Of a stretch of 64,000 nt of DNA, positions 5,721 to 61,987 are shown piece after piece; position 1 is the stretch's first letter; every line of letters begins with the position of its first letter. The notes beneath the pieces are model-generated. The model had not been told where the DNA came from. It saw only the letters and a list, made by a program, of their open reading frames with translations, and did no database searches. Where the stretch lies: positions 1,426,001 to 1,490,000 of the forward strand of contig JASTWF010000048.1 of assembly GCA_030390025.1 (NCBI GenBank), given 5' to 3'. This stretch comes from Squalus acanthias. Its lineage: Eukaryota. Position numbers and translations under genes: made by a program.

Positions 5721-6351
5721 GACACAATGTGATGCCTATTATGATCGTTTTGCAAGTCAAAACAAACAGTGAAGGAAATGTATTGGATTATTCATTGGTA
5801 ACAGGCGCGGGTCTTATAACATCACCAGAAAGAAGCAGCCAGGAGGAAGTCCAACTGCGTTTTTCGGCAAAAGGGTCGGAAAGTGAAAGGATTACAGAAC
5901 CAGAGCAGTTGACCATTCAGGGGACTCGAAGATCAGCGGTGGCGTTGCTCATTCGGTGCCAAAGCAATTCGTGGCACAGGAGACAGTGGACTACTGCGCC
6001 ATCCGATGGCTACAAAGTGCAACTACATGCAAATGCGTTTTGTTACTCTCCCAGTACAACCGAATTCGTCCTAAAATTGATCCGTCTTCCAATTATTTTC
6101 TCCTCTCCTTCAAATGTTGACGCTCCTTACACAGAATTACATTTAATTTACTCCATGGAATCAGGTCGATGCCGGTGTTTGTGGTCAAACATGAGCTTCC
6201 TCCAACCCATCTTCATCTCACCCTATCAGCAGAACCTGCTACTCCTTTCTCCCTCGTGTGTTTATCCAGCTTGTCTTGGGCAGAAGCGAGCGGAACATGA
6301 AAGGTAACAAGGAGTTTGAGGCGTCACGTCGTCCAAACGTTTCTCTGTGAC

Positions 6352-6390
6352 AGTTTTTGTCAGGGCGCCGGATCAGTCTGTATCGCTGTG
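6352..6390 (-). other. 23-RSS of V2 (CACAGCG-23-ACAAAAACT)
   Basis: agtttttgt at 6352-6360 and cgctgtg at 6384-6390; spacer 23. Confidence 0.95.
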
Positions 6391-41574: not shown

Positions 41575-41592
41575 GAGCTCCCCCTAGCGGTG
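41575..41592 (-). promoter_or_regulatory. Candidate CTCF-binding element about 220 bp beyond the V10 RSS
   Basis: Minus strand CACCGCTAGGGGGAGCTC. Confidence 0.55.
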
Positions 41593-41811
41593 TCTGATAG
41601 AAGTAAATTGCATTGAATTGACAGACGTGTTAGTAAAGGCAAACCCGTGTCTCCCAAGTATAATGATATCCTATACCGTCCGTTTTCAGGAATGAATTAA
41701 CTAGTTTAACACAAATGAACATTATCATAGTGGACAGAGCAATTTCGTGCGCTTTAAGCGTGCGAGGGTAGGTCTGGGGTTCCCGGCATCTTCCTGTTCG
41801 TTGTTACCTTG

Positions 41812-41850
41812 AGTTTTTGAACCGGCTCTGCGCTTGTTTGCATCGCTGTG
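41812..41850 (-). other. 23-RSS of V10 (CACAGCG-23-TCAAAAACT)
   Basis: agtttttga at 41812-41820 and cgctgtg at 41844-41850. Confidence 0.93.
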
Positions 41851-42769
41851 CTGTTTAGTAGCGCAGTAGTAGGCCGCCGTGTCAGTCGTCTCAGCGCCCA
41901 GTATTTTCAGGCTGCAGGACTTAGGATCGGGTCTCTTTACTTCAAACCTTTCCTTGAATCCATCCTCGTGTGTTGGCTCACTGCCGGATACCGAGGTCAC
42001 GACGAGCTGTAACCCTGCCCCGCTGCACTGCCGGTACCAGTACATGTATGAATTGCTGGTGTCGTTCTGGTAACAGTGCATTTCCACCTCTTGACCCTTT
42101 CCAACGGACAACCATCTCCCCCACTGGTGGACGATGGAACATCTAGATGGGGCTGAAGAACAACAATGAAAGGGGATAGAAAAAAGCGGCCAAGTTGAAA
42201 TCAGAAATGTGGGACAAGTGTTTCCTCAAATCCGAGAAAAGCTGCCTGAACGATGGGTTTTGGGTAAATACATGGCGCGATGTAGCACCGACTGATTCTG
42301 ACCAGGAAAACTCCAGGATCAAATTCGGCCTGTCCTGGGCCAATATTTATCCCTAAACCACTATCACTGAACAAAAACAGATGATCTGGTCTTTATCATA
42401 TTGCTGTTTGTGTGAGCTTGCTGTGCGCAAATTGGCTGGCCGCTTTTCCTATATTATACCAGTGACAACTCTTTAAAAGTTGTAAAGCACTTAGGAACAT
42501 ACTGAGCTCGTGAAGGGCGCTATAGAATTGCAAGTTACATGTTTCCTTTTTTCCGGTCGGTCCTGAGTTAGAGGTGGTACTGGGGCGTGATGCTTCCTGT
42601 TATTATTAGAATGCGGACTGCAATCAAACTGAAGCAGAGCAACCGCCTTAGGAACAGCCACAATTTGAGATATCACAATTAAGTTGACAACTGTAAGTAC
42701 TCCGCCACAGAGAATATACTTACTTAAGAGAAGCAGTGCCAGGGAACACAACAAAGAGGTGGAGGTCAT
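41851..42769 (-). CDS. TRBV: TCR beta V segment V10, apparently functional
   Basis: Leader 42724-42769 (MTSTSLLCSLALLLL, GTAAGT donor). V exon 41851-42152: SIVHQWGRWLSVG...MHCYQND...WYRQ...DTAAYYCATKQ. Confidence 0.9.
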
Positions 42770-42867
42770 GCTGTCAGGCGTTCAGCAGATGATCTGTTCT
42801 CGTATTCACTCCCCTAGCATCTAACCCAAGCTGCTACTTCCGCTCCGTTTCTTTTGTCTGGCAATCA

Positions 42868-42879
42868 GGAACTGACATC
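42868..42879 (+). promoter_or_regulatory. ETS-CRE-like element of V10
   Basis: GGAACTGACATC about 100 bp upstream of the ATG; ACTTCCG also at about 42836. Confidence 0.5.
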
Positions 42880-43874
42880 CCCGTCTAGCGGAAGGAGCTA
42901 TATTTGTCCTTGTATGACTTTTGCGGCTCGGTGCGGCAACTATAGAAAACAGAAGGCACATAAGATTTAATTATTTCTCTCTCAGCCGCGGTACACTTTA
43001 TAAATCTATGAATTAGTTTCATTTCCTATGTTTCATACCGACGATTGCGTTCAAAAAACAAAACAGTAAAAATACAACTAAGATAAAATTGATATTATTT
43101 TAATTATATTAATGTATATATCAAATACGCTTGCTGACATGTTGAGTGTTTTGTTTTTACAACGACGATTTGCTACTGTGCAAAGAATTACATAGTAGTT
43201 GTGAATGGGACACAAAATCAAGCCTTTCGGCACAGCAGGTCCTTACCGGTGTGTATGCTCCACACGAATCTCCTCCCACCCCACCTCATCTCACCCAATC
43301 AATATATCCTTCTATTCCTTTCTCCCTAAAGTGTTAATCTAGATTTCCGGATAGCTGCACTCGCTCAGTTTTGCTATCATTCCAGTAAATATTTTTTGGA
43401 TATTCTCCAGGGACTCAATGTCATTTTATAATATGGAGACCAGAAATGTGCAGTGTAACTACTTCGCATAATGAGTTCCGCATTCTAAAGACTCTCTGAG
43501 TAAAAAGGTTACTCCTGGATTCCCAGCTGGATTTATTAGCGACTATCTTATATTGATGGATCCTAGTTTCCGAGTCACTACGTCTCCCCACAAGTGGAAC
43601 GCTCTGTTCTACGTCTATCCTCTCAAAACCTTTCATAATCTTAAATTCCTCTATCAGGTCACCCCTCGCCTTCTCCTTTCTGTAGAAAAGAGCCACAGCC
43701 TGTTCAGACTTCCCCGAAAATTAAAAATCTCAGTTTCGGAAGTCATCCTTGAAATTTTTTCTTGCACCTGCTCCCTTTTTATAATATGGAGACCAGAAAT
43801 GTGCACAGTCAACCAAACAATGGCTGTCTTTTATCCAGCATTATCACAGCAGTAATGGACATCAGCCTTTAAAT

Positions 43875-44985
43875 CAGGGAAATATTTGTGCACTGAATAG
43901 TTGCTCTCAGTCACTCTCCGTCAGGGAGATATCTGTACACTGCCTGTTGTCTCTCAGTCCCCTCTCCCTCAGGGAGATATCTGTATACTGAGAGGTGTCA
44001 CTCAATCCCTCTCTCTCAGGGAGATATCTGTACACTGACTGGGGTCTCTCAGTCCCTCTACCTCATGGAGATATCTGTACACTGACTGGTGTCTCTCAGA
44101 CTCTCTCCCTCAAGGAGATATCTGTACACTGACTGGGGTCTCTCAGTCCCTCTACCTCATGTAGATATCTGTACACTGACTGGTGTCTCTCAGTCCCTCT
44201 CCCTCAAGGAGATATCTGTACACTGACTTGGGTATCTCAGTCACTCTACCTCATGGATATATCTGTACACTGACTGGGGTCTCTCAGTCCCTCTACCTCA
44301 TGTAGATATCTGTACACTGACTGGTGTCTCTCAGTCCCTCTCCCTCAAGGAGATATCTGTACACTGACTGGTGTCTCTCAGACTCTCTCCCTCAAGGAGA
44401 TATCTGTACACTGACTGGGGTCTCTCAGTCCCTCTACCTCATGTAGATATCTGTACACTGACTGGGGTCTCTCAGTCCCTCTACCTCATGGAGATATCTG
44501 TACACTGACTGGTGTCTCTCAGACTCTCTCCCTCAAGGAGATATCTGTACACTGACTGGGGTCTCTCAGTCCCTCTACCTCATGTAGATATCTGTACACT
44601 GACTGGTGTCTCTCAGTCCCTCTCCCTCAAGGAGATATCTGTACACTGACTTGGGTATCTCAGTCACTCTACCTCATGGATATATCTGTACACTGACTGG
44701 TGTTTCTCAGTCCCTCTCCCTCAAGGAGATATCTGTACACTGACTGGGGTCTCTCAGTCCCTCTACCTCATGGAGATATCTGTACACTGACTGGTGTCTC
44801 TCATTCGCTCTCGCTGAAGCAATTACCTGTACACTGAGTGGTGTCTCTCAGTCCCTCTCTCTCAGCGAGATATCTGTCCACTGACTGCTGTCTCTCAGTC
44901 CCATTCCCTCAGGGAGATATCTGTAGACTGGTGTCTCTCAGTCGCTCTTGCTGAAGCAATGATCTGTACACTGACTGGTGTCTCT
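43875..44985. repeat. 47-bp minisatellite with alternating A/B variants
   Basis: GAGATATCTGTACACTGACTGG(G/T)GTCTCTCAGTCCCTCT(A/C)CCTCA(T/A)G; period 47. Confidence 0.93.
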
Positions 44986-45484
44986 TTTCTGATAATTAAA
45001 ACCTCTCAATTCTGGTATCATTCATATTAGAAAAATGTTTGCACCTTCTCCATGTACCTCGATGTACTTTTTATAATTTGGAAACCAGAACTGTTCGGGA
45101 TGGCACATGGTGAGGTGCTCTTTTGTCATTTGGAATTCAACAGAAGATGATTTACTGTGAATTGGACTTCTTTGATTGGATCTTAATTGTTCTCCGCATA
45201 TATTACCGATTTAACAGTAAAGATTGTGAGCCGCAATTCTGATGAGCAACCTGCTTCAGTTGCAGAAGCGCTCCCATTGGCCGTGATTGCTTCATCTTGT
45301 TTTCCACNNNNNNNNNNNNNNNNNNNNNNNNNNNNNNNNNNNNNNNNNNNNNNNNNNNNNNNNNNNNNNNNNNNNNNNNNNNNNNNNNNNNNNNNNNNNN
45401 NNNNNNNNNNNNNNNNNNNNNNNNNNNNNNNNNNNNNNNNNNNNNNNNNNNNNNNNNNNNNNNNNNNNNNNNNNNNNNNNNNNC

Positions 45485-48400
45485 TCGTCTTTGAAATAGT
45501 GCCAGGGAAACTTTTACGTTCACATAAGAGGGCAGAAGGGCACTCAGTTTAACGTCTCACCCGAAAGACAGCACTTCCGACAGTGCAGCGCTCCCTCAGT
45601 ACAGCCCCTCCGACACTGCAGAGCTCACTTAGTATTGCCCCTCCGACAGTGCAGCGGTCCCTCAGTACTGCCCGCTCCGACAGTACATCGCTCCCTCGGT
45701 ACTGCCCCTCCGACAGTGAAGCGCTCCCTCAGTACTGCCCCTCCGACAGTGCAGCACACCCTCAGTACTGCCCCTCCAATAGTGTAGCGCTCCCTCAGTA
45801 CTGCCCATGCGCCGTGCAGCGTTCCCTCAGTACTGCCCCACCGACAGTGTAGTACTCCCTCAGTACTGGCCCTCCGACAATGAGCCACTGCCTCAGTACT
45901 GCCCCTCCAAAAGTGCAGTACACCCGCAGTACTGCCCCTCCGACAGTGCGGCACTCACTCAGTACTGCCGCAACGACAGTGCAGCGCTCCCTCATTACTG
46001 CCGCTCCGAATGTGCTACACTTCCTCAGTACCACCACTCCGACAGTGTCGCACACCCTCAGTACTACCCCTCTGACAGAACAGCGCCCCCTCAGTACTGC
46101 GCCTCCGATAGTGCAGCACTTCCTCAGTACTGACCCTTCTACAGTGCATTCACTCCCTCAGTACTGTCCCTCCGAGACTGCAACGCTCTCTCACTACTGC
46201 CCCTCCGACACTGCAGCGGTTTTTCGTACTGCTCCTCCGTCAGTGCAGCGCTACCGCAGTACTGCCCCTATGACAGTGCTGCGCTCCTTCAGTACTTTAT
46301 CTCCCAGAGTACTGATCATCTTCAGTACTGCCCCCTCCGACAGTACAGCACTCCTTCACCACTGCCCCCTCCGACAATACAGCACTCCTTCAGTACTGCC
46401 CCCTCCGACAGCGCACTGCTTCCTCAGTACTGCCACTCAGATAGTGCAGCGCTCCCTTAGAACTGCCCCGACGACAGGGCAGCACTTCCCATACTGCCCC
46501 CGTCAATGCTGCGCACCCTCAGTGCAGCCCCTCCGAAAGTGCAGCTCTGCCTCATTACTGCCCCTCCGACTGTGCTGCGTTCCTTCAGTACTGCCTCTTC
46601 CACAGTACAGCAATTGCTCAGTAGTGCCCCCTCCGACAGTACAGCACTCCCTCAGTACTTCCCCTTCCATAGATACATAGATACATAGAAGATAGGAGCA
46701 GGAGTAGGCCATCCGGCCCTTCTAGCCTGCTCCGCCATTTAATGCGATCATGGCTGATCCTCCAATTCAGTATCCCGTCCCCGCTTTCTCTCCGTAACCC
46801 TTAACCCCTTTTGCCTGTAGAAATATATCTAATTCCCTCTTAAATATATTTAATGAGCTGGCGTACACTGCCCTATGTGGCAATGAGTTCCACAGGTTCA
46901 CCACCCTCTGAGTGAAGAAATTCCCCCTCATTTCTGTCCTAAATGGTTTAGCCCTTATCCTTAAATTATGTCCTCTAGTTCTGTTCTCACCCGCCAAGGG
47001 AAACATTCCTTCTGCATCTAGTCTGTCTAGACCTGTCAGAATTTTATACACTTCTATGAGGTCCCCTCTCAATCTTCTAAACTCCAGTGTGTACATCCCT
47101 AAACTACATAGTCTCTCCTCATAGGTCAATCCCGCCATTCCTGGTATCAGCCTAATGAATCGCCGCTGCACCCCCTCCATGGCAAGAACATCTTTCCTCA
47201 GATGAGGCGACCAAAACTGTACACAGTACTCGAGGTGTGGTTTCACCAGTGCCCTGTACAGCTGCAGCAAGGTATCCCTGTTCCTGTATTCCAACCCTTT
47301 TGCTATGAAGGCCAGCATACCGTTTGCATTCTTGACCGCCTGTTGCACCTGCATGCTCGCCTTCAGTGACTGGTGTACAAGAACACCCAGGTCTCTCTGT
47401 ACTTCCCCCTCTCCCAATTTATTGCCATTTAAATAATAATTTGCCCTCCCGTTCCTGCACCCAAGGAGGATAACTTCGCACTTGTCCACATTATAGTGCA
47501 TCTGCCATTTATCCGCCCAATCACCCAGTCTGTCCAAATCGCTCTGGAGCTTCCTGGTCTCCTCCTCTAAGCCCACCCCCCCCTCCTAGTTTAGTGTCGT
47601 CTGCAAATTTGGAAATGCTGCATCCGACTCCCTGATCCAGGTCATTAATGTAAATTGTGAACAGCTGGGGACCCAGGACAGATCCCTGCGGTACCCCACT
47701 TCTTACTGCCTGCCATTCAGAAAATGAGCCGTTTATTCCAACTCTCTGTTTTCTATCTGACAGCCAGTTCTCTATCCACATCAATACTTTCCCCTTTATC
47801 CCATGAGCTTCAATTTTCCATGCTAATCTTTTATGTGGGACCTTGTCGAAGGCCTTTTAGAAGTCCAGGTACACCACATCTACTGGCTCTCCCCCATCTA
47901 TTTTACCAGTTACTCCCTCAAAAAATTCCAATAGATTAGTCATGCACGATTTACCCTTTGTAAATCCATGTTGACTCTGTCCTATCCTGTCCCCATTTGC
48001 TAAGTGCTCCGCTATTTCATCCTTAATGATGGACTCCAGCATTTTGCCCACAACTGATGTAAGGCTTACAGGTCTGTAATTACCTGCTTTTTCCCTAGCC
48101 CCCTTTTTGAATAGTGGGGTAACGTTAGCTACCCTCCAATCCATGGACACTGTTCCCGTGTCTAATGAATTCTGAAAAATCATACGTAGTGCATCCGCTA
48201 TCTCTAGGGCCACCTCCTTCAGTACCCTAGGATGCATGTTATCAGGCCCTGGGGATTTGTCCGCCTTCAATCCATTTAGCTTCCTTAACACCATATCCTT
48301 AGAGATATTGATTTGCGTCAGTTCCTCCTTTGCCAATGTCCCTATTTTTCCCGATATCCCAGGGAGGTTTTTTGTGTCTTCCTTCGTAAAGACTGACCCA

Positions 48401-48880
48401 AAGTATGCATTTAGTTGGTCTGGCATTTCCTTATTTCCCGTTATATATTCCCCCGTATCTGACTGCAATGGACCAACTTTGGTTTTCACCAGTCTTTTCC
48501 TCTTGATATACTTATAAAAGCTTTTGGAGTTAGTTTTTATATTTTCCGCCAGCTTGCTTTCGTAAGCTATTTCGCCCCTCTTGATTAAGCCCTTTGTCCT
48601 CCTTTGCTCTATCTTAAACTGTTCCCAATCTTCCGCTCTGGCGCTTTTTTTGACTATTTTATACGCCCTATCTTTGGATTTTATGCTGTCTCTAATTTCC
48701 CCTGTTATTCCACACTGCAGCAGTCCCTCAGTAATGCCCCCTCCCACAGTGCGGCACTCCCTCAGTACTGCCCCTCCAACGGTGCAAACTTCTCGCAGTA
48801 TTGGCAAACGGGGAGTGTCAACTGGATGTTGGAGCTGGAGTGGGACTTGAACCCTCGATCTATTGATTCAGTGGCCGAGC
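45485..48880 (-). mobile_element. Deu-domain SINE whose 33-bp array is interrupted by a CR1
   Basis: Array runs about 45575-46665 and resumes at 48713-48800. tRNA-like head at about 48835-48880. Confidence 0.75.
46670..48707 (-). mobile_element. Relatively young 5'-truncated CR1 LINE with a TTCCA target-site duplication
   Basis: Three long RT ORF pieces and a (TATCTATG)n tail. TTCCA occurs at 46665-46669 and 48708-48712. Confidence 0.93.
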
Positions 48881-49314
48881 ATGGTATTCTGATTGGTGAC
48901 TGCAGCTCAGCAAAGAAAACGCATATCCCAACATGCATTCTTTGGCATTTATAAACCTTTGATGATATGCCTAAGAAGATATCTATCCAACCATCTGTAA
49001 ATGAGAACAGATGCACTGTTTACTGGTTCTTTCCCAACTATTATTACGTTCACTAGCAATTCAGGGCGCAAATTGAAGGATGGAAAAAAAGGTCTTTTTT
49101 TTCTTCAAATCTTATCTCGTCTAGTCATGTCGCCAAACGTCTCGTCACGTGACCTCATATTTATGTATCCCACGGCCACTATGGGAAATAGAGCAGGAGA
49201 GATCTCCCAGGACTCCTGGCCAATATTTATCTGTCAACCAACATCACCTGATCATTCATCGCATTGCTGTTTGTTGGAGCTTGCTGTGCGCTGATTGGCG
49301 AACGCCCCATCATA

Positions 49315-50420
49315 AATGATTGCAGCCCGCTCCATCACAGTCTGATTGACAGCCGTGCCTCCTCATAGTCTGAATGACAGACCCGCATTCTCCAAGCCTG
49401 ATTGACAGCTCCGCCTCCTCAGAGTCTGATTGACAGCCCCGCATCCTCAGAGTCTGAATGACAGCCCCGCATCCTCACAGTCTGATTGACAGCCCCGCCT
49501 TCTCACAGTCTGATTGACAGCACCGCCTCCTCACAGTCTGATTGACAGCACCGCCTCCTCAAAGTCTGATTCACAGCCTCGCCTCCTCAAAGTCTGATTG
49601 ACAGCCCCGGCTCCTCATAGTCTGTTTGATAGCCCCGCCCCGTCACAGTCTGCTTGACATACATGCTCCCTCACAATCTGATTGACAGCACTTTACCATC
49701 ATATTATAATTTAAAGCCCCGCCTCCTCAAAGTCTGATTGACATACATGCTCCCACACAATCTGATAGACAGCCCTTTCCCATCATAATATAATTTAAAC
49801 CTCAGCCCTTTCACAGTCTGAGTGACAGCGTCGCCTCCTCAATATTTGTTGGTCAGTCCCAGCTCTTCAAAGTCTGATTGAAGCCCTGGTCTGCATCACA
49901 GTCTGATGGGCAGCCCGTCCCCGCGCCTTTCGAGAATTTCGGACAGCCCCGGGCTCCATTGCAGTATGCTAAACAGCCCCACCCCTCGCATTCTGATTAA
50001 AAGTGCCGCCCCCTCCAATCGATAGCCAGCCATGCCCCGTCATCGTCTGATTGAATGATGCACCCCTCAGTCTGAAGGCAGACCCACATCCTCAGGGAAT
50101 TATTGGAATCCCCGTCCACGCACCACCGTCCCTCAAAGTCTACTTGACAGCTTCGGCTCTCTCACAGTCTAATTGAGAGCGCCTCCCCCGCACAATCTGA
50201 TTGACAACTTTGGCTCTCTCAGTCTGTTTGAGAGCCCCGCCCCCTCACAGTCTGATTGACATCTTCGGCTTTCTCAAAGTCTGATTTACAGTTCCATCCC
50301 ATCAGTGTCCGATCGAGAGGCCCTCCCCCTCGCATTCTGATTGTAGTTCGCACCCTCACTGTCTAATTGACAGCCCCGCGCCCACTCCATCTGATTGAAA
50401 GCCCCGGACTCCCTGACAGG
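49315..50420. repeat. About 28-bp degenerate minisatellite (CAGTCTGATTGACAGCCCCGCCTCCTCA)
   Basis: Direct tandem periodicity. Confidence 0.9.
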
Positions 50421-50464
50421 GTCCGGTGTTTGAGACGAAACGCGATGGTTTCTTCATTGACGGG

Positions 50465-51436
50465 GGATGTTGTCACGGCGCTGGACGGTTGTGAAACGCT
50501 GCGCTCCATCACCAGCCGCACAGAAATACATCGCCGCGTCTGCCGCTTTGACGCCGTCTATCTGCAGCCCGGATTTCCTATTGTCCACACTGCGGGTGAT
50601 GCTAAACCCGGAGTCAAAACCTTCTTCGTAGTTATCTTGGCTCCCCATCAAACTCTACCCGATCAGAGCCAGTCCCACTCCGAGGTACTACCGATACCAG
50701 CGCATGTTAGAGCGGGCGGTTCTGTTCTGGTAATAGTTCAATTCGGCGGCTCCTCTCTCCGTCGGGCCACTGATGCACCACGTCTCCCGAAGAACCGTCT
50801 GCAAAAGAATCGGGTATTAGAAAAACTGGTTAGACCTTGTGAACGCAAGAGCTGAAATCATGTTTGTGAAGAGCTTGTATGATCAGCAAGGATATAAATG
50901 ACCGCCTTCCTTGAAGTTACCCAAAGGAAATCTTTACGGTACAACAGGCCATCCTGAATAAAATACAGAAAATAAAATAACGAAACTTACGTCAAGGACA
51001 ACCATAGTTAGATTGATTCACGCATTAATATGGTATGAATTCATGATTTCCACCACTATCAAAGAAAAAGCTGTCCAATTAGTACCACTCCCCTCCGGTG
51101 GCCCCATAGCCTTAACATTGTTTTTTTTTCAAATATATATCTAATTTCCTTTTGAAAGTTAATATTGAATCTGCTTCAACCAGACTTGCAGGCAATGCAT
51201 TCCGGATCGTAACAACTCGCTGCATAAAACAAAATTCTCCTCATCTCGCCCTCTGTTTCTTATGCCGATTACCATTATCACAGGTTACTATGTTAATCCC
51301 ACGATATGGTTTATTTTAATATATATTTAAACAAGAGGCACTTTGAAGAAACATATCATTCTGCAGTCGTTTCATTAAGTCACCCTGCTTACACTGCACC
51401 AGAAGGACAGAAGTGGGCGAGAGAATCTAATCACAT
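50465..51436 (-). pseudogene. TRBV: TCR beta V pseudogene V11 (V2/V5 family)
   Basis: V exon 50504-50798 has a frameshifting FR1 deletion, first Cys changed to Tyr, and two in-frame TAG codons; it ends AMYFCAAGDG. RSS is CGCAGCG-23-ACAACATCC (decayed). Leader 51393-51436 starts ATG TGA. Confidence 0.9.
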
Positions 51437-52159
51437 ATTAGTGCGAAACATAATTCAGAACCCGCCAGCTTCTGGGTCGCGCATGGAGCTGCGGTGGTCA
51501 TTTAATGTCGCTTCCGGCGACCGGTTGTGACGTCGAAGCAACGTTAATTCTTCCGCTTGCAAAAAAGACGAGGAGGTGAGAGGCGTGGGTACAATCCACC
51601 AACCCTGGCTGAATTTTGACTTCGCATTTTATCTATGTGAGGTGCCAAAGCGAACTAGTTCTTATCCCCCTCCATTCATTGACACACGCTCCCCTCCCTC
51701 CCCTGACGGTGGCCAATTCTTCGGATAAAGTGGGCGGCAGTGCATTGACAGCCCGTTATACGCTCCGCCCAATTTTCCCCTCTATTGACTTTAGTGGCCG
51801 AGCCGAATACCAGAGCTGCATTCAAGGTGAAGCTAGATACGTACATGAGTGGGGAAGGAATAGAAAGATATGCTGCTAGGGTGAGATGGAGTCAGGTGGG
51901 AAAGGCTCGTGTGGCGCATAAACACCGGCACTGACCAGTTGGGCAGGGTGACCTGCTTCTGTGCTGTAAATTATATAAATTCTGTGTAATCTGGAATTTA
52001 ATCTAATGCAGCGGCTTTTTGCCAATTTTAATCCCGTATAAGTGATATTTTACTACCTTAAATGCGTCATATATACACAAGTTGTTGTTGTTGCACTCGG
52101 CAGGGGTTCCAAATCCTAGATTGTATCTAAAGGTTTCGGATGCGTCAGCTACTTTACAA

Positions 52160-53340
52160 CAACCACAACTTGTATTTATATAGCGCCTTTAACGTAGTAA
52201 AACGTCCAAGACGCTTCACAGGAGTATTGTCAGACAGAGGCGGAGAGGTTTAGGAGGGAATTGCAGAGCTTAGCACCGAGGCAACAGAAGGCACGACCAC
52301 CAATGGTGGAGCGATTATAATCAGGGATGCTCAAGAGGGCAAAATTAGAGGAGCGCAGATATCTTGGGGGGGGGCGGGTGGCTGGAGGAGAGTACAAATA
52401 TAGGGAGAGTGCGAGGCCATGGAGGGATTTGAAGAGAAGAATGAGAATTTTGAAATCGAGGCGTTACTCAACCGGGAGCCAATGTAGGTCAGCGAGCACA
52501 GCGGGTGATGGATGATCTCAAGTTTACGTGAAGGCCAGCCAGGAGTGCGTTTTATGTAATGATTGCATGACGACCTGCTAAACAGATGTGTTCTTTAGTT
52601 GCACAAGGGCTCCCTCTGCCGGCGATGGTTTCACACAGCTGAAATCCTGAACATTCAACTAAATCGGGCACAACGATCAATGAGTTGAATGGCCAGATCA
52701 TCAGTTTTTCAGTTGAGCAGTAATTATTATTGTCCATCTTTAGTTGCCCTGAGGGCATGCAAAGTTAACCTTGCAGTGGGGGAATGGTTTCATCCATGCT
52801 TTTGTTACCTCCAGACCCGACTACTTCAATGCTATTACTGCTCGATCTCCCAACTTGCAACCTCCCGAAACACGAGGTGCTACAAACTTCTGCTGGTCGT
52901 TTCCTGACTCGGTCCAGGTCCCGTTCACCCATTCACCCACTGTGCTCGCTGACCTACATTGGCTCCAGACCCGACAACGCCACGACTCAAAGATTCTCAT
53001 CCTCGCATTCAAATCCCTTCAAGGCCTCGACCCCATCCTATCTCGGTAACCTCCTCCAGTTCTACATCCGTCCGAGATCACTGGGCTCATCCAATTCGGG
53101 CCTTGTTCGCATCACCGATTTTAATCGTTCCACCATTGGCGGCCGTGCCTTCAGCTGCCGAGGCCCTGAGCTCTAAAATTCCCTCCCTAAATATGTAATC
53201 CCCTCCAACTGCTCTCCTCTACTTTGACGCTCCTTAAAACCTCACTATGTCACTGTGCTTTTGGTCACCTGTCCTAATAAGCGCCTTGTGAAGTTTTACT
53301 ACGTTAAAGGCATGACATAAAAATAAATACGTAGTTTCTT
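52160..53340. mobile_element. L2-like LINE 3' fragments
   Basis: FIHAFVTSRPDYFNA…PTVLADLHWL…KILILAFKSL and GGRAFS motifs. Confidence 0.7.
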
Positions 53341-53459
53341 GTTGCTTTTGTTGTTTGACGATGCAGGTTTATTTCCCTGAAAGACAGTAGTGAACATGTG
53401 AAATAGGTAACCTACAATCCGGGTTCTAGCACTAAAGTTACCTTAAGTTTTTCGCATTC

Positions 53460-54375
53460 ACATCAGGCGCAGTGGATAGCATGCTCGCCTCTGAGACAGA
53501 AGATTGTGGGATCGAGGCCTACTCCAGAGACTTGAATGAATAGCTTCGGCTGACAGTTTTGCGGTGTCGGAGAGGTAGTACTGAGGGAGCGCTGTACTGT
53601 CAGAGGGGTAGTATTGAGGGATCGCCGCACTGTCGGAGATGTAGTACTGAGGCAGCGCCGCCCTGTCAGAGGGGCAGTACTGAGGGAGCGCTGCATATTA
53701 GCGAGGTATTACTGAGGGAGTGCTGCACTGTACGGAGATGTAGTACTGAGGGAGTGCTGCACTTCAGAGAGGTGTTACTAAGGGAGTGCTGCACTATCGC
53801 AGGGGGAATACTGAGGGAGGGATGCACTGTCGGACAGGCAGTACTGAGGGAGCGCTGCACTGTCGGAGGGATAGTAATGAGGGAGCGTGCACAGTCGGAG
53901 AGCCAGTACTGAGGGACCGCTGCACTGTCGGAGGGGCAGTACTGAGGGAGCGTGCACTGTCGGAGAGGCAGTACTGAGGGACCGCTGCACTGTTGGAGAG
54001 TCAGTACTGAGGGAGTGCTGCACTGTCGGAGAGGCAGTACTGAGGGAGGGCTGCACTGTTAAATGTGTATCTTTGGCATGTGAATTTAAACCGAGGACCC
54101 GTCTTCTCTCACAGGTGGATGTGAAAGATCCAACGGACAATATTGGAAGAAGAGCAGAGTTTTCGTTCCCAGTGACATCTCAAAATCAATAAAACAACAA
54201 AATACTTAGTCATGACCTCATTGCAGTTTTTGGGGATCTTCCTCTGGGAAAATTGGCGGCCCCATTTTCTTACATTACAACAGTGACCACATGTTATAAA
54301 ATGTGCTTCATTGGCTGGAAAGCGCTTCGGAACGTCCTGGGGTCGTAAAAGGCGCTATAAAAATGCAAGTTCTTC
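53460..54375 (+). mobile_element. Deu-domain tRNA-SINE with a 33-bp array (about 53565-54060)
   Basis: tRNA-like head, array, core (AAACCGAGG…CAGGTGGATGT), and 3' end GGCGCTATA…AAATGCAAGTTC. Ends about 30 bp from the V12 RSS. Confidence 0.8.
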
Positions 54376-54404
54376 CTTTCCTTCTTCACGCTTTGAGCCG
54401 GCTG

Positions 54405-54443
54405 GGTTTTTGACAGGGCGCTCAATCAGTCTGCAACGCTGTG
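54405..54443 (-). other. 23-RSS of V12 (CACAGCG-23-TCAAAAACC)
   Basis: ggtttttga at 54405-54413 and cgctgtg at 54437-54443. Confidence 0.94.
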
Positions 54444-56019
54444 CGTCACTCGTCGCACAGTAATAGACCGCCGTGTCTGCAGGTGCAGCCCTGGGGAGCT
54501 TCAGATTAGAGTTTCTATCGCCGTTTCCTGAAATTTCAAAACTGGTTTGATCCTTCTCTTCGTAATGAACCGTTCCACCGACTTGAATGTATCCGATCAA
54601 CGTGAGACCCTGGCCAGCCGATTGGCGGTACCAGAGCATGGATTGAGGTGTCGAATCCTGTTCATCGCATCTTATTGTTGCAAGTTTGTTTTCTGCAATC
54701 ACCAGCGTGAGTGGACTTTGAAGAGGCCTCATTCCGTGTGTTAAATCTAAAAAGAAAAACGAATTAAGAGAATTAATTAAATCGGACAGCACAGAATGAG
54801 GCCATTCGGCCTTTATTGCCTGTGGCGGATCATTTGGTAAATCTATCCAATTAATCCCACTCACCTGCTCTTTCCCCATAGCCCTGCAATGTTCTCCCTT
54901 TCAAGTCTTTAACAAATTCCCTTTCGAAAGTTACTGTTCAAACTGCTTCCATCGCCCTTTCAGGCAGTGGATTCCAGGTCATCATAACTCACTGAGATGA
55001 AAAAAAGCAATTTCTCCTCATCTCCCCTCTGGTTCTTTTGTCAACTGTCTTCAATCGATGCCCGAATTTGGTTGTAAACTGGACTGGGTCCGCGACTAGA
55101 CCAAGTCAGTTGCATGTGTTGTATTTCCCAACAACATCATATGTCATTATTATCCTATTTCATAATAAGTCCCGCTCACCTATCACCACTGCAGCACAGA
55201 CTCGCTGACCTACTTTGGTTCCTGGTACGGCAGTGCCTCGATTATAAAATTCTCATCCCTGTGTTCAAATCCCGCCGTGGCCTCTCGCCCCTTCCCTATC
55301 GTTGTAGCCTCCTCCAGCCCTAGAAGTCCCGAGAGCACTGCACTTCTCCAATTTTGGCCTCTCGTGCATCCCCTACTCCCTTTATCCAACCATTGGCCGC
55401 CGTGCCTCCAGCGGCCGAGACCCCCAGCTTTGGAATTCCCTCCCTCAACATCTCCAAAGCTGTCCCGCTCTCTCCTCCTTTCAGTGCCTATTTAAAACGT
55501 ACATTTTTAATCTGTCATAATAGCTCCTTATGTGGCTTGGATCAAATCTTGCCTGATTTACTCTCGTGCGAAGCACCATAGGACATTTTACGAGATAAAG
55601 ACTCTGTATAACTGAAACCTGTTGTTATTATTCAAATGTCCGTAGCAAAACGACACTTGCAGATGAGTTCTCGTGAACCTGTTTCTATATTGTTCTTAAA
55701 TAAACCATTGATCCCCAATTCATGATTGAACCAAGTAAATATTAAACAGTGGGTTAGAAATTCGACTTGGGCGATAGCGCAAAACGCGCGCAAATGTATG
55801 GGCCGCCCATTATTCGCTTTGCGCCTGATATTCAACTCCGTTAATGCGGTATAGCCCAAGACGAGTTTGTACCAACTCTGCCGCATATCTAACGCTGCTA
55901 GTTTAGAGAAATCTACTGTCTAATGGAACACATCGCTCTAAAAATAAGTCGTATTTGAACGCAGGATACTTACCCGGCAAGAAAAGAGGCAAAGTAAATA
56001 AAATTAAATCTATTTGCAT
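54444..56019 (-). CDS. TRBV: TCR beta V segment V12, apparently functional
   Basis: Leader 55974-56019 (MQIDLILFTLPLFLP, GTAAGT donor). V exon 54444-54746: RPLQSP...IRCDEQD...WYRQSAGQGL...DTAVYYCATSDA. Confidence 0.9.
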
Positions 56020-56129
56020 AATTGGATCGAAATGGCCGGATTGATTGCTGCAATGATCGTGTTATCACAACAAGTGCCTCCGATTCTGACTAACCGGCCA
56101 TCCAGGTGCGCTCCCGAAACCGAGCCCCC

Positions 56130-56142
56130 GGAAGTGACATCA
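56130..56142 (+). promoter_or_regulatory. ETS-CRE / V-beta decamer promoter element of V12
   Basis: GGAAGTGACATCA, containing AGTGACATCA, about 110 bp upstream of the ATG. Confidence 0.75.
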
Positions 56143-56394
56143 TTTCCCAGACGAGGCAGCCACGTTCATGTTATATCTGCGTGACAGAATGTGAGTTAGT
56201 GCATGCGTGTTCTCCTGCTGTGTTGAAACATACCGAAATTCTTGGGCCGAGACCCAAAATAGTCAGTAGCTAAGAATTAGTCTATAACAACAACAACAAC
56301 AACAACATCGATCTATATAGCGCCGTTGACGTAGTAAAACGTCCCAATGCGCTTCACAGGAGCTTTATCAAACTCCATTCGCAATGCCGTGAAG

Positions 56395-57170
56395 CGATCG
56401 GTCGAGCAAATATACTGTTGGGCTGTATCCATAGCGCAAGCGATTATGAGACGAGCCATATTCATCCATTAGTCAGGACTTACTAGGAATACTGTGTCCA
56501 GTTTGCGTCTCCTCACATGGTAGGTGATATTGAGGCTTTGGAATAGATGCAGAGGAGGGCCTCTCGACTAATTCCCAGTTTAAAGCATCTTAGTTCAAAA
56601 GATAGGCTATAAGGGTTGGGCCTCTATACTTTAGAGATGCGTAGACTTACAGGAGATCTGATTGAGGTGTATAAGATAATGAAGGGAATATATTGTTTTC
56701 CAGTTGAGAGTTTGTTTCAATTAATAGGTTAGGGAGGACCAGCAGTCATAATTATAAGTTGTATCAGGGTTTATCTAGGACAGATGTCAGTAGCTGGTTC
56801 TTTCCCTGAAGAATAGTGGACTTCAGGAGCATCTGATATCTCGTGTGGTGTCGCTGAATTCGTCAAGCTGGACCTGTTTCTCGCTTGGGCAGAGATCAGC
56901 TCTTACAGAAGGTAGTTACTGAAGGGAATTCAGGGCCAGAGTGAGCTCCTGGACTAGCTGGGTCGGAGAGAAATTTCCCAGATTTTATTCCCCAAATTGC
57001 CGTGAGTTTTTAAATCTGCTTTTCTTTTGCCTCTTCCCGGGGATCACATGATTTCGGGTGGGGTGGAGTATACATATTCTGATACGCAAGGTACCGCATT
57101 TGTGTGGGACAGGCTCGATGAACCAGAGGGTCTTTATCCGGCCGTCATTGTTCGTAAGTTCGTAATTTGA
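56395..57170 (+). mobile_element. Decayed CR1-type LINE 3' fragment
   Basis: LVR..EYCVQF..PH and RRLTGDLIEVYKIMKG-like reading. Confidence 0.65.
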
Positions 57171-57349
57171 CACCGAGCCCAATATTAGGACAGGGGGCTA
57201 AAAGCTTGATCAAAGAGGTAGGTTAAAAGGAGGAGAGATTGCGGGAGACGTTGAAAGAGGGAATTCCAGAGCTCAGTTCAAAGCCAGCTGAAAGCACAGC
57301 CGCCACTGGTACTGAACATCTCCATCCCAAAATGTAAGTTGGCCTGGTG

Positions 57350-57985
57350 CAAGTTGTGTGACGAATGGCTCATTTGGTAGCTCTCTCGATTCTGAGTCAG
57401 AGGTTCCTGGGTTCGAGGCCCACTCCGGAAACTTCAGAAAAAATATCTAGGCTGACACTCCCAGTGCAGTACTGAGGTAGCGCTGCATTGTCGGAGGGCA
57501 GTACTGAGGGAGTGCTGCGCTGTCGGAGGGACTGTACAGACGGGGCGCTGCACTGTCGAAGGTGCAGTACTGAGGGAGCGCTGCATTGTCGGAGGAGCAG
57601 TATTGAGGGAGTGCTGGACTGTCAGAGGGTCAGTCCTGCGGAAGTGCTACACTGTCAATGGGCGGTACTTAGGGAGCGCTGCACTGTGGGAGGTGCAGTA
57701 CTGCGGGAGCGCTGCACTGTCGGAGGGGCATTTCTGAGGGAGCGCTACACTGTCGGAGGGGTAGTACTGAGGGTGTGCTGCACTGTCGGAGGGGCAGTAC
57801 AGGCTAATATTTATCGCTCAACCGATATCACTAAATTGATATCTGGTCTTAATCACATTGCTGTTTGTGTCAGCTTGCTGTGCAAAAATTGGCTGCCGTG
57901 TTTCCTAAATTACAACGGCGAGCACACATCAAAGAACGTACTTCGAGGTCGTGAAAGGCGCCGTAGATATGCAAATGAGTTCGCT
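57350..57985 (+). mobile_element. Deu-domain tRNA-SINE with a 33-bp array (about 57465-57800)
   Basis: A box TGGCTCATTTGG and B box GGTTCGAGGCC, then the array and the 3' tail. Confidence 0.8.
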
Positions 57986-58053
57986 CCTTTAGTGAACTGC
58001 CCAGAGAGTGCTCGATCTCAGATGGCGATGAGCGCACGGTGGGTGGGTGAGAA

Positions 58054-58092
58054 GGTTTTTGTATCAGTCTGCGGCAGTTTTGTGTCGCTGTG
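58054..58092 (-). other. 23-RSS of V13 (CACAGCG-23-ACAAAAACC)
   Basis: ggtttttgt at 58054-58062 and cgctgtg at 58086-58092. Confidence 0.96.
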
Positions 58093-58722
58093 CGATACTC
58101 GCCGCACAGTAATAGGTCGCAGAGTCTGTCAGCTCGGAGCCTTCCAGGTGCAGAGTGAGCTGGTTGTTTGCTGCGTCGAGGTGCACTTTGAATCGATTCT
58201 CGAAACTGGGCCCACACCTGCTGTTCTCATTGCAAATCCACTGTATTGTCTCTCCCTGTTGCCTGTACCAGTGCATGGTGTAGCTGCTCATGCTCGCTCC
58301 CTCCAAACTGCACATGAAAGTGAGCGGCTTTCCCGGTAGAATAGCGGCCGCGGCTGGAGACTGGACCACAGTGGGTGCAGCCCGAACCCCTGGATTAGGT
58401 TTAAACAAAGACAATATGTTAGAATCATAGAAGGAAGATTGTAGCATAAAATCGTCGAATCTTACTGCACAGAAGCAGACCATTCCGCCTCTTTGAAAGA
58501 GCTCTCCAGTTATTCCCACTTCCCTACAGCCCTGCAAATACCCCTACCCACCCCAACACTCAAGCATTGATCCAATTCCATTTTGGAAGTTATTCTTGAA
58601 TCTACTTCCACTTGCATATCATCGCAATTTCATTCTTTTACTATTGCCAATTGATATGGCAATACATAGTACTTACAACAGATCAAATGTCCGAGTGATA
58701 AGGTGACCAAGATTAAAAGCAT
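58093..58722 (-). CDS. TRBV: TCR beta V segment V13 (divergent 'SMSSYTM' family), apparently functional
   Basis: Leader 58677-58722 (MLLILVTLSLGHLIC, GTAAGT donor). V exon 58093-58389: APTVVQSP...FMCSLEGASMSSYTMHWYRQ...DSATYYCAASI. Confidence 0.87.
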
Positions 58723-59374
58723 TCTAGCTGAGAAACACATCGCTCTTCCAAAGGGATGACAGGCAGCGTTACTTAGCGACAACGTGTCACCTGTAAAATT
58801 GCGCTCCTCAACGGTGATGCAACCGTTGTGATGAATTACGCGGTAAGACTGGCCAGCCAATGGTGTGGTTGGAGCACACACGTCAACGGTATGAACAAAT
58901 GAGAAGCATTTCCTTTGATAGCATGTTTCTGACAAATTATGTACATAGGAGGAAGTTCGTAGCGTCAAATCGTAGCATCTCACAGCGCAGAAGGCGACCA
59001 TTCGGCCCATCGTGCCTGTGCAGGATCTTTGAAAGAGCTGTCCAATTAAACCCACTCCCCTGCTCTTTCCCCATAGACCTGAAACATTTATGTTTGGTAA
59101 TACTAGGGAAATGGGCTGGGTTATGAAATCTCTCTTTCTTACTTACTTGTCTTGCCTTCTTACTTTCACACTTTGCTTTCCTTCTTTCTTTTCATCGTTT
59201 CTGCCTTTCTCACTTCTTTTCATCGGTCTTTCCATCATTCTGTCCATTCCTTTCTTACTGTTGCATTTAATCAGCTCTGATTTCATACTATGTTGGCCTT
59301 GAAGTTACACCACCCTTTCCTACCTTAACTTGAACGCGAGAGGGACGTACAGGAGAGTGTATAACATCACAGAG

Positions 59375-60086
59375 TGTTAGAATAGTACAGTAGAGGAGTA
59401 CGCCGTTCGGAATATTGAGTATGCGCCGGCTCATACGAAGGGCACTCCCCCGCTCTTTCCGCGTAACCCGGCAATTTTTTCTCCTACAAGGATTTATCCT
59501 AATCCCTTTTAAAGGCTACTATTGAATCCGTATCCACCACCCTATCAGGTTGGGCATTCTAAATACTAAAAGATCGTTGCATAAAAAAGATTTTCCTCAT
59601 GTCGCCTCTGGTTGTTTTCCCAATCACCTTAAATCTGTGCCCTCTGGTTATCTGCCCTTCAGCCATTGGTAACAAGTTCTCCTTATTTACTCTTCCAAAT
59701 TCCTCCGCATATTAAACACCTCCGTCAAATCTCCTCTCAGCCTTCTCTGCTCTAAGGAGAACAACCCCAGCTTCTCCAGTCTATCCACGTAACCGAATCC
59801 CTCGAACCTTTCTTGACAATCTATTCTGCACCCTCTCCAAGGCACTCTCGTCCTTTCTGAAGTGTGCTGCCCAGAATTAGAAACAATAATCCAGATTATT
59901 AAAGGTTTAGCATAACTTGATGGCTTTTGTACTGTATGACTCTATTTATAAAGCCCAGGATACCATATGCTTTATTAACTGCTTTGTTAACTGTCATGTT
60001 CTGTCCTGTCTCCTTCACAGATGTGTGCACATACACCCCCAGGTCTCACTCTTCTTGCACTCCCTTTAAATTTATATAATTTAGCA
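59375..60086 (-). mobile_element. Decayed CR1 3' fragment
   Basis: Matches the other CR1 3' ends in the window (CTCTAAGGAGAACAACCCCAG etc.). Confidence 0.7.
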
Positions 60087-60754
60087 TGTAACATAACGGT
60101 GAAAAAAATGCTTCACAATATTGATGTCAGTATTAATATCTTTGTATTACGTGAATGTATCCTGTGTGATGGAGGCTAACAGATGGATTAGATTAGGACT
60201 GTAGGATTCCAGAGTCCGAAGCTAAGCAAGCAGGAGGCAGCCGTTTATGACATTAAAAAATAATCAATGGGTTTGTGTAAAGAATTATAGCTTAGTTTGG
60301 AGAGAGCATGTTTATATTTCAACTGTTAGTTATCTGGTCAAATTTGATATTTATAACTTTGCTAAATTATCTAATCTTCTATTGAATATCCAGTGAGACT
60401 GGAATAGATGTGGTGCAACCGTGCCATCTACTGGCGTGATAGCATATGAAACTTAAGGATCACATGACAGTAATCTCGAAATTGATAGGTTCAGCGAAAG
60501 TAATCTGACTGCTTCGCATCTGTCTTTAAGGTGTATAAATCTGTGTTGTTTTCATCAATACTTTGGTAATCTGTGCTGAGAACTCCCCTGGATTGGTTAG
60601 GGGTTCGTAGTCCACGATGGATAGCCTACTTGCAAGCGTATAGACGTCTAGAGTTGCTTCTACTTTCTGTCGCTATTAATAAAATCAACGAGTTCTTTTA
60701 TTACTGGCATGGGAACCGAATTAATTAGGATTAATCTGATTTTTTGATTTAACA
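60087..60754 (+). mobile_element. Putative solo LTR-like element
   Basis: TGTAA…TTAACA termini, TATAAA (about 60534) and AATAAA (about 60678); similar to about 18570-19100. Confidence 0.45.
60420..60436 (-). promoter_or_regulatory. Candidate CTCF-binding element inside an LTR-like element
   Basis: Minus strand CGCCAGTAGATGGCACG. Confidence 0.6.
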
Positions 60755-60914
60755 GCGAAGGCCCTTTCCTCGAGGAAGGATGGATGATCGGGAGAAGCAC
60801 TGCTGAATTTCCAGTATATACGCCCTCACTTTTCTGCAGTGGTGATACTTATGTCTAATATATCAGTTTGCTATGACCTGGTAGACAGAATATTTGCACT
60901 GAACTTTCATCTGG

Positions 60915-60932
60915 TGCTGCCATCTGGTGGCG
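60915..60932 (-). promoter_or_regulatory. Candidate CTCF-binding element 35 bp beyond the V14 RSS
   Basis: Minus strand CGCCACCAGATGGCAGCA matches the CTCF core CCASYAGRKGGCRS. Confidence 0.7.
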
Positions 60933-60967
60933 GAAAATGAGCACTGAACTCCCAGTCATCCGCTGCA

Positions 60968-61006
60968 GGTTTTTGTAGCTGGGGAGGCGCTTTCTCAAAT
61001 GCTGTG
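60968..61006 (-). other. 23-RSS of V14 (CACAGCA-23-ACAAAAACC)
   Basis: ggtttttgt at 60968-60976 and tgctgtg at 61000-61006. Confidence 0.95.
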
Positions 61007-61987
61007 CGGTACTGCAAGCACAGTAATAGACAGCGGTGTGAGACGGAGAGGCATCGCTCAGTTCCAAAGTAAACCGCGTATTGCTGCTTCTTTCGGCCTT
61101 AAAAGACTCAGATGTGTATTTCGTAACATCACCTTCGCCAGCAGAAAAGAAAAGAGCTCCTAATGCCCGGTCGGCTTGTTGTCTGTACCAGTACATGTTG
61201 GGATAGCCAGTATTCGTCAGCGTGCATCTGAGCGTGGTCGACTCTCCTGCTCCAATTGGTAGGATAAAAGGCGACTGGTCCACGTACGAGGCGAGTATTC
61301 CTGTTGAAAGGAACATCGATTAGAGACTGACTTCCATCAATAATTGAATAGGGTAGGGATTACATATAAAGAAATAACTTGCATTTCTACATTACGTTTC
61401 GTGACCTCAGGACGTCCCAAAGCGCTTTACAACATAGGAAGAACTTTTTGAAGTGTGGACACTGTTGTAATGTAATAATCGCTGTAGCCAATTTTCGCAC
61501 AGCAAGTTCCCACAAAGAGCAATATGAAAACTTGGTGTTTATAGGTGCTCGATGCGGGATAAATATTGGATAATCTACGTCCACCTGAGAGGGCAGCTTT
61601 AATTAACTTCCGAAAGAAGCCGCCTCCGACGGTGTAGCACACCGTCAGTGTTGTTGCTCCGATTGTGCATCGCTCCCTCAGTACTTCCCCTCCGACATTG
61701 CAGCGTTCCCTCAGTACTGCGCCCTCCGACATTGCAGCGCTCCCTCAGTACTGTCCAGTCCGACAGTGCAGCACTCCCTTATTACTGGCACTTGGAGCGT
61801 CAGGCTTGATTTTGTGCTCAAGTTTCTGTAATGAGAGGCGACCCCGCGACCTTCTGACTCGGTAACAAGAAGGCAATCATCTGAACTACAGCAGACATTA
61901 TAGTACATTATTCGATAAAGTTTGTTACTTTGACTTACGTGGGATCAATGCAGCCAACAAGATTAGATAATGAGTTTCAAGAAACAT
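61007..61987 (-). CDS. TRBV: TCR beta V segment V14 (TRBV30-like), apparently functional
   Basis: Leader 61939-61987 (MFLETHYLILLAALIP, GTAAGT donor). V exon 61007-61300: YVDQSP...LRCTLTNTGYPNMYWYRQQADRALGALFFSAGEG...HTAVYYCACST. Confidence 0.9.
61375..61890 (-). mobile_element. Deu-domain SINE in the V14 intron
   Basis: SINE tail, core and a short 33-bp array. Confidence 0.75.

Follow-up and report, generated by a model that had tools for sequence, protein, structure and literature searches.

The TCR-beta locus and the 64-kb window

The stretch analysed here (the window, 64,000 nucleotides of Squalus acanthias contig JASTWF010000048.1) lies within a TCR-beta locus of ~2.2 Mb composed of two tail-to-tail units, V-D-J-C facing C-J-D-V. 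Our survey covered 1.66 of the 2.28 Mb of the contig, with the stretches 80001-400000 and 1860001-2158436 covered by pattern searches only. All V segments seen in the surveyed contig (260/260) point inward, and the V RSSs on both arms are all convergent with the D of their own unit. D cores with 12/23 RSSs are located at contig 960540 and 1098948-1098961, the two units hold 34 and 4 J-like segments, and there are two C genes, both with TRB-type transmembrane exons. The combination that defines TRB (V with 23-RSS, D with 12/23-RSS, J with 12-RSS and TRBC) is therefore present. The best PDB matches of the C2 exon were Ig constant domains, so the identity of the C genes rests on their context; protein database searches with C2 and V14 gave no match. 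A C1-set search recovered one of the two C exons only. An earlier note had proposed that this DNA belongs to a shark TCR locus, and the PDB matches of V14 together with the D, J and C layout bear this out, specifically as TCR-beta. Long matches between the arms were inverted in 214 of 217 cases, with a median identity of 87%. An assembly artefact in which two haplotypes were joined was ruled out on the basis of this median and of the C exons, which are identical at 32/91.

The features of the window are listed below, with CTCF motifs scored by the JASPAR matrix MA0139.1.

61007..61298, minus strand: intact TRBV exon of V14, an open frame with C/W/YYC; best PDB matches are TCR beta V domains
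60968..61006, minus strand: V14 23-RSS, CACAGCA-23-ACAAAAACC; the nonamer ends at 60968
60940..60949, minus strand: 10-mer located 6 bases ahead of the core and resembling the upstream (zinc finger 9-11) motif, with 7/10 letters of the published CTGCAGTTCC-like sequence
60915..60933, minus strand: strong and partly palindromic predicted CTCF core of V14 (score 22.3), lying 34-35 bases beyond the nonamer
60870..60904, minus strand: second copy, now decayed, of the 45-bp unit formed by upstream motif and core; it immediately follows the first
60419..60437, minus strand: CTCF motif, score 17.1, 531 bases past the V14 nonamer, in the sequence upstream of the following V unit
52607..52625, minus strand: CTCF motif overlooked by the earlier note (score 17.1), lying 1779 bases beyond the RSS at 54443
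41812..41850, minus strand: V10 23-RSS, CACAGCG-23-TCAAAAACT; the nonamer ends at 41812
41575..41593, minus strand: CTCF motif of V10, moderate with a score of 14.8, lying 218-219 bases beyond the nonamer
5994..6012, minus strand: weak copy of a fifth site family, score 11.8, 339 bases past the RSS at 6390

The three CTCF cores described previously are present, on the minus strand (60915-60932, 60421-60436 and 41575-41592) and at the distances reported from the V14 and V10 nonamers. All three had been called good matches, which suits the scores of 22.3 (p = 1.5e-8) and 17.1 (60419..60437, p = 8.5e-7) but not the V10 site, which is moderate rather than strong at 14.8 (p = 3.5e-6). The window holds 5 minus-strand matches and 1 plus-strand match at a score of at least 12, and motif density is above chance, with ~0.2 matches of at least 14.8 expected per strand. 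A window-only orientation test was rejected as evidence, as 3 or 4 same-strand sites give a two-sided p of 0.25 or 0.125; it takes the sites of the whole locus to make the orientation bias plain. The fifth site family has strong copies (score up to 24) in the left arm, and 5 of 7 places homologous to 52607..52625 score at least 15.

Sites adjacent to V segments

In a census of 229 V segments assigned to families, a predicted CTCF site was found within 60 bases of the RSS in 37, all belonging to two families: the V14 family (27 of 28 copies) and family 10 (10/11). The spacing of 34-37 bases behind the nonamer is constant across these two families, whose flanks are unrelated, and both thus show the fixed, short and family-wide distance that characterizes RSS-associated CBEs. 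The V10 site (+218) and the +530 site do not. V10-type sites are, like V14-type sites, family-wide and not peculiar to the copy in the window: 9 of 17 members carry one at +215 to +218, and 10/13 homologous places score at least 12. The +530 site had been presented as a feature of V14, a view that its homologues contradict, as they track the next V and not the preceding one. Their distance to a following V exon of family 8/9 is 0.9-2.8 kb (for one of them, 3.4 kb to another V), and that to the previous V varies (1.7-8.7 kb); 10/16 homologous places score at least 12.

The tandem 45-bp units of V14 are intact in paralogues, e.g., at contig 1609341/1609386/1609431. Using the upstream-motif consensus given in PMC12885311, we found a median of 7/10 matching letters in the V14 family 6 bases before the core (background 1.6%), and a median of 6 with a best of 8 in family G3; the 10-mer is missing from most other site families. 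The bipartite arrangement, a CTGCAGTTCC-like 10-mer 5-6 bases before the 19-mer, is thus seen in the V14 family as a degenerate match only. Going outward, the first RSS-adjacent site on the right arm is that of V14, 388 kb from D2, and on the left arm the first lies 164 kb from D1; neither arm has the D-proximal placement of such sites reported for mouse Igh (PMC6746451). The D-proximal 320 kb of the right arm contains 54 V segments and 3 matches of at least 15. RSS adjacency as a general design of the Igh type, as the earlier note had envisaged, is not what the locus displays, given two D-distal families.

Signs of retention coexist with widespread decay. Informative motif columns accumulated 57 changes in 56 columns, vs 129 in 77 for the other motif columns (p = 0.0008), and near flanks had 1.74 changes per column. 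The signal comes mostly from family G2 (0/221 flank windows as low); it is modest in the V14 family (5/110) and not significant alone in five other families. Scores of at least 12 persist in only 23/44 and 39/59 copies. A site scoring at least 15 accompanies 37/47 intact and 7/10 broken V segments, a comparison with few pseudogenes and automated calls. As for conservation elsewhere, a V14-type site does occur in contigs of three other organisms (B, C, and D), but there the motif was not significantly better kept than its flanks (1/19 vs 11/79 positions, p = 0.27).

Orientation of motifs across the arms and around the D-J-C units

Across the locus, motifs scoring at least 15 were distributed plus/minus as 46/1 in the left arm, 6/62 in the right arm and 2/3 in control DNA; of the six plus-strand motifs in the right arm, four are V14-type sites in a palindromic flip. 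Their density was 8.5 and 9.0 per 100 kb in the V arms vs 2.5 in control DNA, an enrichment of 3-4 times. The published consensus with at most one mismatch gave 56/6, 9/73, and 2/1 for the left arm, right arm and control, respectively, while the reversed consensus used as a control gave at most 2 matches per region. Neither the raw number of copies nor the change of strand from one arm to the other was accepted as independent evidence, as tandem and inverted duplication make the copies pseudo-replicates; the opposite strand bias of the arms is itself a consequence of the inverted duplication. The held-out contig ends (16/0 and 0/13) were likewise set aside as mostly copies of two of the same families. 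With duplicates collapsed into families with unrelated flanks, these families faced inward in 9/9 cases at a score of at least 18 (p = 0.002) and 11/12 at 15 or above (p = 0.003); at a threshold of 12 the inward bias was not significant (15/23, p = 0.11). A distant common origin is conceivable even for site families with no evident relationship. Sixty column-scrambled matrices yielded at most 2 strong families per direction.

Six families that face the opposite way and match control DNA are repeats found genome-wide. No match in 200 kb of control DNA was seen for families 1-9, 15 and 18. In genome-wide exact-pattern searches, 31/40 and 32/32 matches fell on the locus contig, every one facing inward. 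A motif-carrying mobile element was ruled out on these grounds (strong families without a control match, and all 32 exact matches of one search on the locus contig). At the scale of the locus, the sites are oriented toward the recombination centre, in agreement with the earlier note, motif density and orientation differ from background, and the V-region enrichment with D-J-C-facing orientation typical of mouse Tcrb is present. As all 260 V segments point inward, facing the centre is here indistinguishable from facing with the V.

Two strong single-copy motifs, oriented toward each other, enclose the pair of D-J-C units, one on the plus strand at contig 949688 and the other on the minus strand at 1101105; a third central motif, also on the minus strand, lies between the two C genes (1049705). 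Two further central candidates, 958357 and 1022049, were dropped as repeat-borne. The left arm has convergent partner motifs at 1049705 (score 21.4), 1101105 (19.6), and 953366 (12.9). For the right arm the nearest strong plus motif is 949688 (22.0), beyond the other unit; none was found between the right arm and its own D-J-C. Among the V segments of a TCR-gamma array (14 V) there was no match of at least 15, and two 20-kb stretches of IgH clusters had none of at least 12.

Possible roles of the inward-facing motifs

The closest match among known systems is mouse Tcrb, in which all 18 V-region CTCF sites face D-J-C (Loguercio 2018, PMC5859386; PMC10772921), 2 of them near an RSS (PMC5859386; PMC10772921), and in which folding works partly by diffusion rather than by RAG scanning alone. 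Both are TRB loci with V-region sites that face D-J-C and are mostly not RSS-adjacent; convergent sites around the D-J-C region are a further likeness for the left arm, less so for the right arm, which lacks a strong plus motif beside its own unit. They differ in that the shark has ~10 times more sites and V segments, CTCF sites that are predicted from sequence only and, where the mouse has one arm plus Trbv31, a pair of inward megabase arms with two D-J-C units placed tail to tail. The motifs are part of an inward-facing array that spans the locus on both V arms, and they probably serve as loop anchors by which the arms are folded onto D-J-C, as in mouse Tcrb. Thymocyte CTCF would occupy a sizeable fraction of the motifs; cohesin, moving along an arm by extrusion, would stall at these sites and pair them with the central ones, and V segments up to 1.1 Mb distant would thereby meet the D-J RSSs. 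The array may have grown by tandem duplication of V units already bearing a site, with inward-facing sites kept. In two families the RSS-adjacent sites may, in addition, influence the neighbouring RSS locally, which the model does not require.

The earlier note had implied a different process, the RAG scanning of Igh, in which RAG bound at D-J would scan linearly by loop extrusion and stall at RSS-adjacent sites, so that V14- and V10-type segments would be over-used. The constant spacing in two families with unrelated flanks, the convergence of every V RSS with its own D, the position of V14 as bearer of the first RSS-adjacent site along the right arm and the mouse precedent described in bioRxiv 2020.01.01.891473 all speak for it. 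We nonetheless regard it as unlikely: few V segments have a site so close, the V10 site is moderate and 219 bases off, intact V segments show no clear enrichment for sites over the few pseudogenes called, and the near-absence of strong matches from the 54 D-proximal right-arm V segments is the reverse of mouse Igh. Mouse Tcrb, moreover, allows inversional joins that scanning could not produce, with flipped RSSs still joining (PMC10772921). It is improbable, too, that the role is purely local, each site insulating its V unit or keeping RSS or promoter chromatin open, with orientation following V transcription rather than the centre. Such a role would suit the fixed places of the site families in V units (+34, +36, +216, +646), the link between the upstream motif and insulator activity made in PMC12885311, and the full confounding of V direction with centre direction in this locus; but such sites are missing from the TCR-gamma array with its 14 V units and from the IgH clusters, with V close to J, and the strong single sites on either side of the D-J-C centre are not near any RSS. 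Least probable, in our estimation, is that the sites are functionless passengers that arose as a handful of motifs by chance and multiplied as V units were duplicated in tandem. Copy counts are indeed inherited, many copies have decayed, pseudogenes retain sites and conservation across organisms does not exceed that of flanks. Against this stand nine unrelated strong families all oriented one way, where scrambled matrices gave at most two per direction, the fewer changes in informative columns and, in the V14 family, an upstream motif with the expected spacing.

The RSS-adjacent sites resemble those of mouse and human Igh VH in that they follow the 23-RSS nonamer at a constant distance, occur in certain V families and face the recombination centre (PMC6746451; bioRxiv 2020.01.01.891473). 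The same sources give a spacing of 17-19 bp in mouse and 19/48 in human VH vs 35-37 bp in shark TRBV, and the shark sites further differ in being next to TRBV rather than VH, D-distal rather than D-proximal, and with no bias toward intact V seen. As V lineage and spacing differ, these sites are probably convergent with VH sites rather than homologous, so that the proposal of an ancient design would apply to the inward-facing layout in general and not to individual RSS-adjacent sites. In the little skate, a CTCF orientation code has been described at TAD borders (PMC10115646), which offers both a likeness, a cartilaginous fish with inward-facing CTCF motifs, and a difference, in that the sites described there mark domain borders in fin tissue rather than a receptor locus.

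More speculative than an inward-facing array of loop anchors is the possibility, which we hold only tentatively, that the two-armed locus, with its several hundred V segments, is folded into one CTCF-bracketed hub around the two D-J-C units and the single convergent pair of sites that encloses them, in which each arm could reach both D-J-C units, its own by deletion and the other by inversion, and that the folding of receptor loci by oriented CTCF sites was already in place in the last ancestor shared by all jawed vertebrates. The literature we found, mostly outside subscription journals and supplements, describes oriented CTCF arrays in antigen-receptor loci of mouse, human, chimpanzee, and rabbit, and contains no shark TRB map and no CTCF in non-mammalian receptor loci. 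The sequence-level match in shark TRB suggests a folding logic as old as long-distance V(D)J recombination, and its absence from the TCR-gamma and IgH stretches of this genome, which are small, is in keeping with a requirement that depends on the size of the locus. If the hub reading is true, the locus would be a natural experiment in which repertoire sequencing alone could separate RAG scanning from diffusion.

A two-unit TCR-beta locus

The contig carrying the window (G000:C3311, of which 1.66 of 2.28 Mb was read) holds two TCR-beta units arranged tail to tail:

up to 952 kb, plus: left V array
960.5 kb: left D
between left D and C1 in the left unit: left J-like segments (n = 34)
1014.7 kb: C1, left unit
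1073.5 kb: C2, right unit
right unit: right J (n = 4)
1098.95 kb: right D
1105.6 to 2205.6 kb, minus: right V array

TCR beta V domains were the top structural matches of V14, and a TRB-type transmembrane exon is present in C1 and C2 alike, with 32 of 91 residues (35%) identical between their Ig exons. Two complete, divergent TRB D-J-C units lie within 955000-1105000, and each is served by a separate megabase-scale V arm. An inverted duplication of ~87% identity links the two arms, so they do not represent two haplotypes. All 260 V segments found in the 1.66 Mb (113 plus, 147 minus) point inward, toward the central D-J-C units; for those of the window, the distance to the D of their unit is 330-390 kb. 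Because the portion read holds at least 260 V segments, in ~19 families, the contig probably carries well over 300; the left array extends to the contig start and may therefore be cut off. Immediately past the last V come ~48 kb of CT/GA low-complexity satellite (2209000-2257000) and then, at 2258000-2278436, tandem units of ~7.7 kb whose open frames look retroelement-like. Our literature search, weak because it ran without most subscription journals and supplements, found no description of a tail-to-tail shark TRB; shark trb elements may be listed in the supplements of PMC10322711.

CTCF motifs in the window and across the locus

Motif scores are based on the JASPAR MA0139.1 matrix. The positions and spacings from RSSs proposed in the earlier note for three minus-strand motifs were verified by sequence, and a fourth match had been overlooked:

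60915-60932, minus: CTCF match, 35 bp past the V14 nonamer (score 22.3)
60421-60436, minus: CTCF match, +530 site (score 17.1)
52607-52625, minus: fourth CTCF match (score 17.1)
41575-41592, minus: CTCF match, ~220 bp past the V10 RSS (score 14.8)

Eleven V-type 23-RSSs of the window share the strand of the three motifs. The window by itself is too small to demonstrate orientation bias. Two of its V exons (50493-50520 and 33377-33398) lack a usable RSS, and one of these has stops; both are pseudogenes.

At scores of at least 15, plus/minus matches numbered 46/1 in the left arm (555 kb), 6/62 in the right arm (755 kb) and 2/3 in control DNA (200 kb, 20 places). A second scan, with the published consensus CCASYAGRKGGCRS (PMC6746451) and at most one mismatch, gave 56/6, 9/73 and 2/1, respectively, and the reversed consensus at most two matches per region. 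Because V units are tandem copies, 190 matches were sorted according to their flanks; this gave 28 families, of which the arms hold 23. The proposed co-orientation toward the recombination centre held across both arms: inward families made up 9/9 with a best score of at least 18 (p = 0.002), 11/12 at 15 or above (p = 0.003) and 15/23 at 12 or above (p = 0.11). Sixty scrambled matrices yielded a mean of 0.3 strong families per direction (maximum 2). Of the eight families facing the opposite way, six have counterparts among repeats in the control DNA; families 1-9, 15 and 18 have none. The flip between arms is no independent evidence. Genome-wide, a nonamer and core within 25-45 bases occur 40 times, 31 of them on this contig, V14-family and inward (31/31), and all 32 occurrences of the pattern of another site family are on this contig, each inward. 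The motif array is enriched, inward-facing and locus-specific. No match of at least 15 lay among the V segments of a TCR-gamma-like array (14 V), and none of at least 12 in two 20-kb IgH stretches. The first TCR-gamma-like V is preceded, at a distance of 13 kb, by a strong CTCF motif (22.7; G000:C8:145074363) that points away from that locus and is possibly a domain border. Elsewhere, G000:C29 carries at 5.9-10.3 Mb dozens of C1-set exons, nearly identical and on both strands, interspersed with TCR alpha/delta-like V RSSs.

Around the D-J-C units lie three single-copy strong sites:

949688, plus: score 22.0, 11 kb before D1
1049705, minus: score 21.4, between the C genes
1101105, minus: score 19.6, 2.1 kb before D2

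The sites at 949688 and 1101105 are convergent and enclose both units. The left arm has partner sites directly beyond its own C; for the right arm the nearest strong partner is on the far side of the other unit.

Placement and maintenance of the sites

Among 229 V of the first 1.46 Mb, a site scoring at least 12 lay within 60 bases of the nonamer in 37, within 300 in 47 and within 1000 in 70. Sites just downstream of the RSS are therefore the exception, confined to V14's family (27/28) and family 10 (10/11). Nine of the 17 members of the V10 family have a site between +215 and +218. The +530 site does not belong to V14: its homologues go with the next V, ~1-2.8 kb ahead of it and at variable distance from the preceding one, and family order indicates that it probably neared V14 through loss of an intervening unit. 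On the right arm, the 320 kb nearest to D (1105000-1426000; 54 V) arose by recent expansion of three V families. The CTCF element that accompanies these families has mostly decayed, scoring 11-17, and the stretch contains three matches of at least 15.

Homologous places were gathered via flanks alone and changes counted on flank trees. Eight informative columns in seven families showed 57 changes vs 119 expected from far flanks; within the motif, 57 changes fell in 56 informative columns vs 129 in 77 others (p = 0.0008). Family G2 supplies most of this signal; that of the V14 family is modest (5/110 flank windows equally low), and that of the other five, taken singly, was not significant. Many copies have decayed, with similar retention at broken (7/10) and intact V (37/47). 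Sequence comparison gives some sign of motif maintenance in the array. In the V14 family, a 7/10 match at 6 bases to the upstream motif (background 1.6%), the zinc finger 9-11 10-mer of PMC12885311, favours an inward reading of the partly palindromic core, the reverse strand outscoring it in 5/28 copies. A 45-bp tandem of upstream motif and core (window 60870-60949) includes the V14-type site as one of its units; some V14 paralogues have two or three intact units (e.g., contig 1609341-1609449), and loose contig ends suggest the same in organism B. Contigs (at least 80% identity) of three other organisms, B, C and D, evidently close relatives, span the nonamer and V14-type site, with a tolerated A to G as the sole listed motif change. 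Conservation in other organisms extends to the site's presence, without significant excess over flanks (variable positions 1/19 in motif vs 11/79 in flank, at this identity threshold).

Possible roles of the array

In mouse Igh, RSS-associated CTCF sites are D-proximal, at 17-19 bp (PMC6746451). The shark RSS-adjacent sites, in contrast, are not D-proximal and their function is putative, so we do not class them as Igh-type RSS-associated elements. Of the proposed loop-extrusion and RAG-scanning design, the TCR-beta locus and inward array stand and the Igh-like placement falls. Igh-type scanning with V14 and V10 favoured is unlikely; in mouse Tcrb a flipped RSS still joins, which is impossible by scanning (PMC10772921). 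A local role within the V unit, which gains from V direction and centre direction being confounded at this locus, seems improbable, and that the motifs are neutral passengers more improbable still.

The closer likeness is to mouse Tcrb, where 18/18 V-region CTCF sites face D-J-C and only two of them are near an RSS (PMC5859386); the predicted shark sites are likewise inward-facing and mostly away from RSSs. The same weak search turned up nothing on CTCF at receptor loci of cartilaginous fishes, and the term is absent from the main text of PMC12227049. We lean toward the prediction that the array works like that of mouse Tcrb. CTCF would bind the inward-facing motifs of both V arms, cohesin would stall at the bound sites, and folding would bring the V arms to the centre on the mouse Tcrb pattern, a sequence of events that we consider reasonably likely in this shark.
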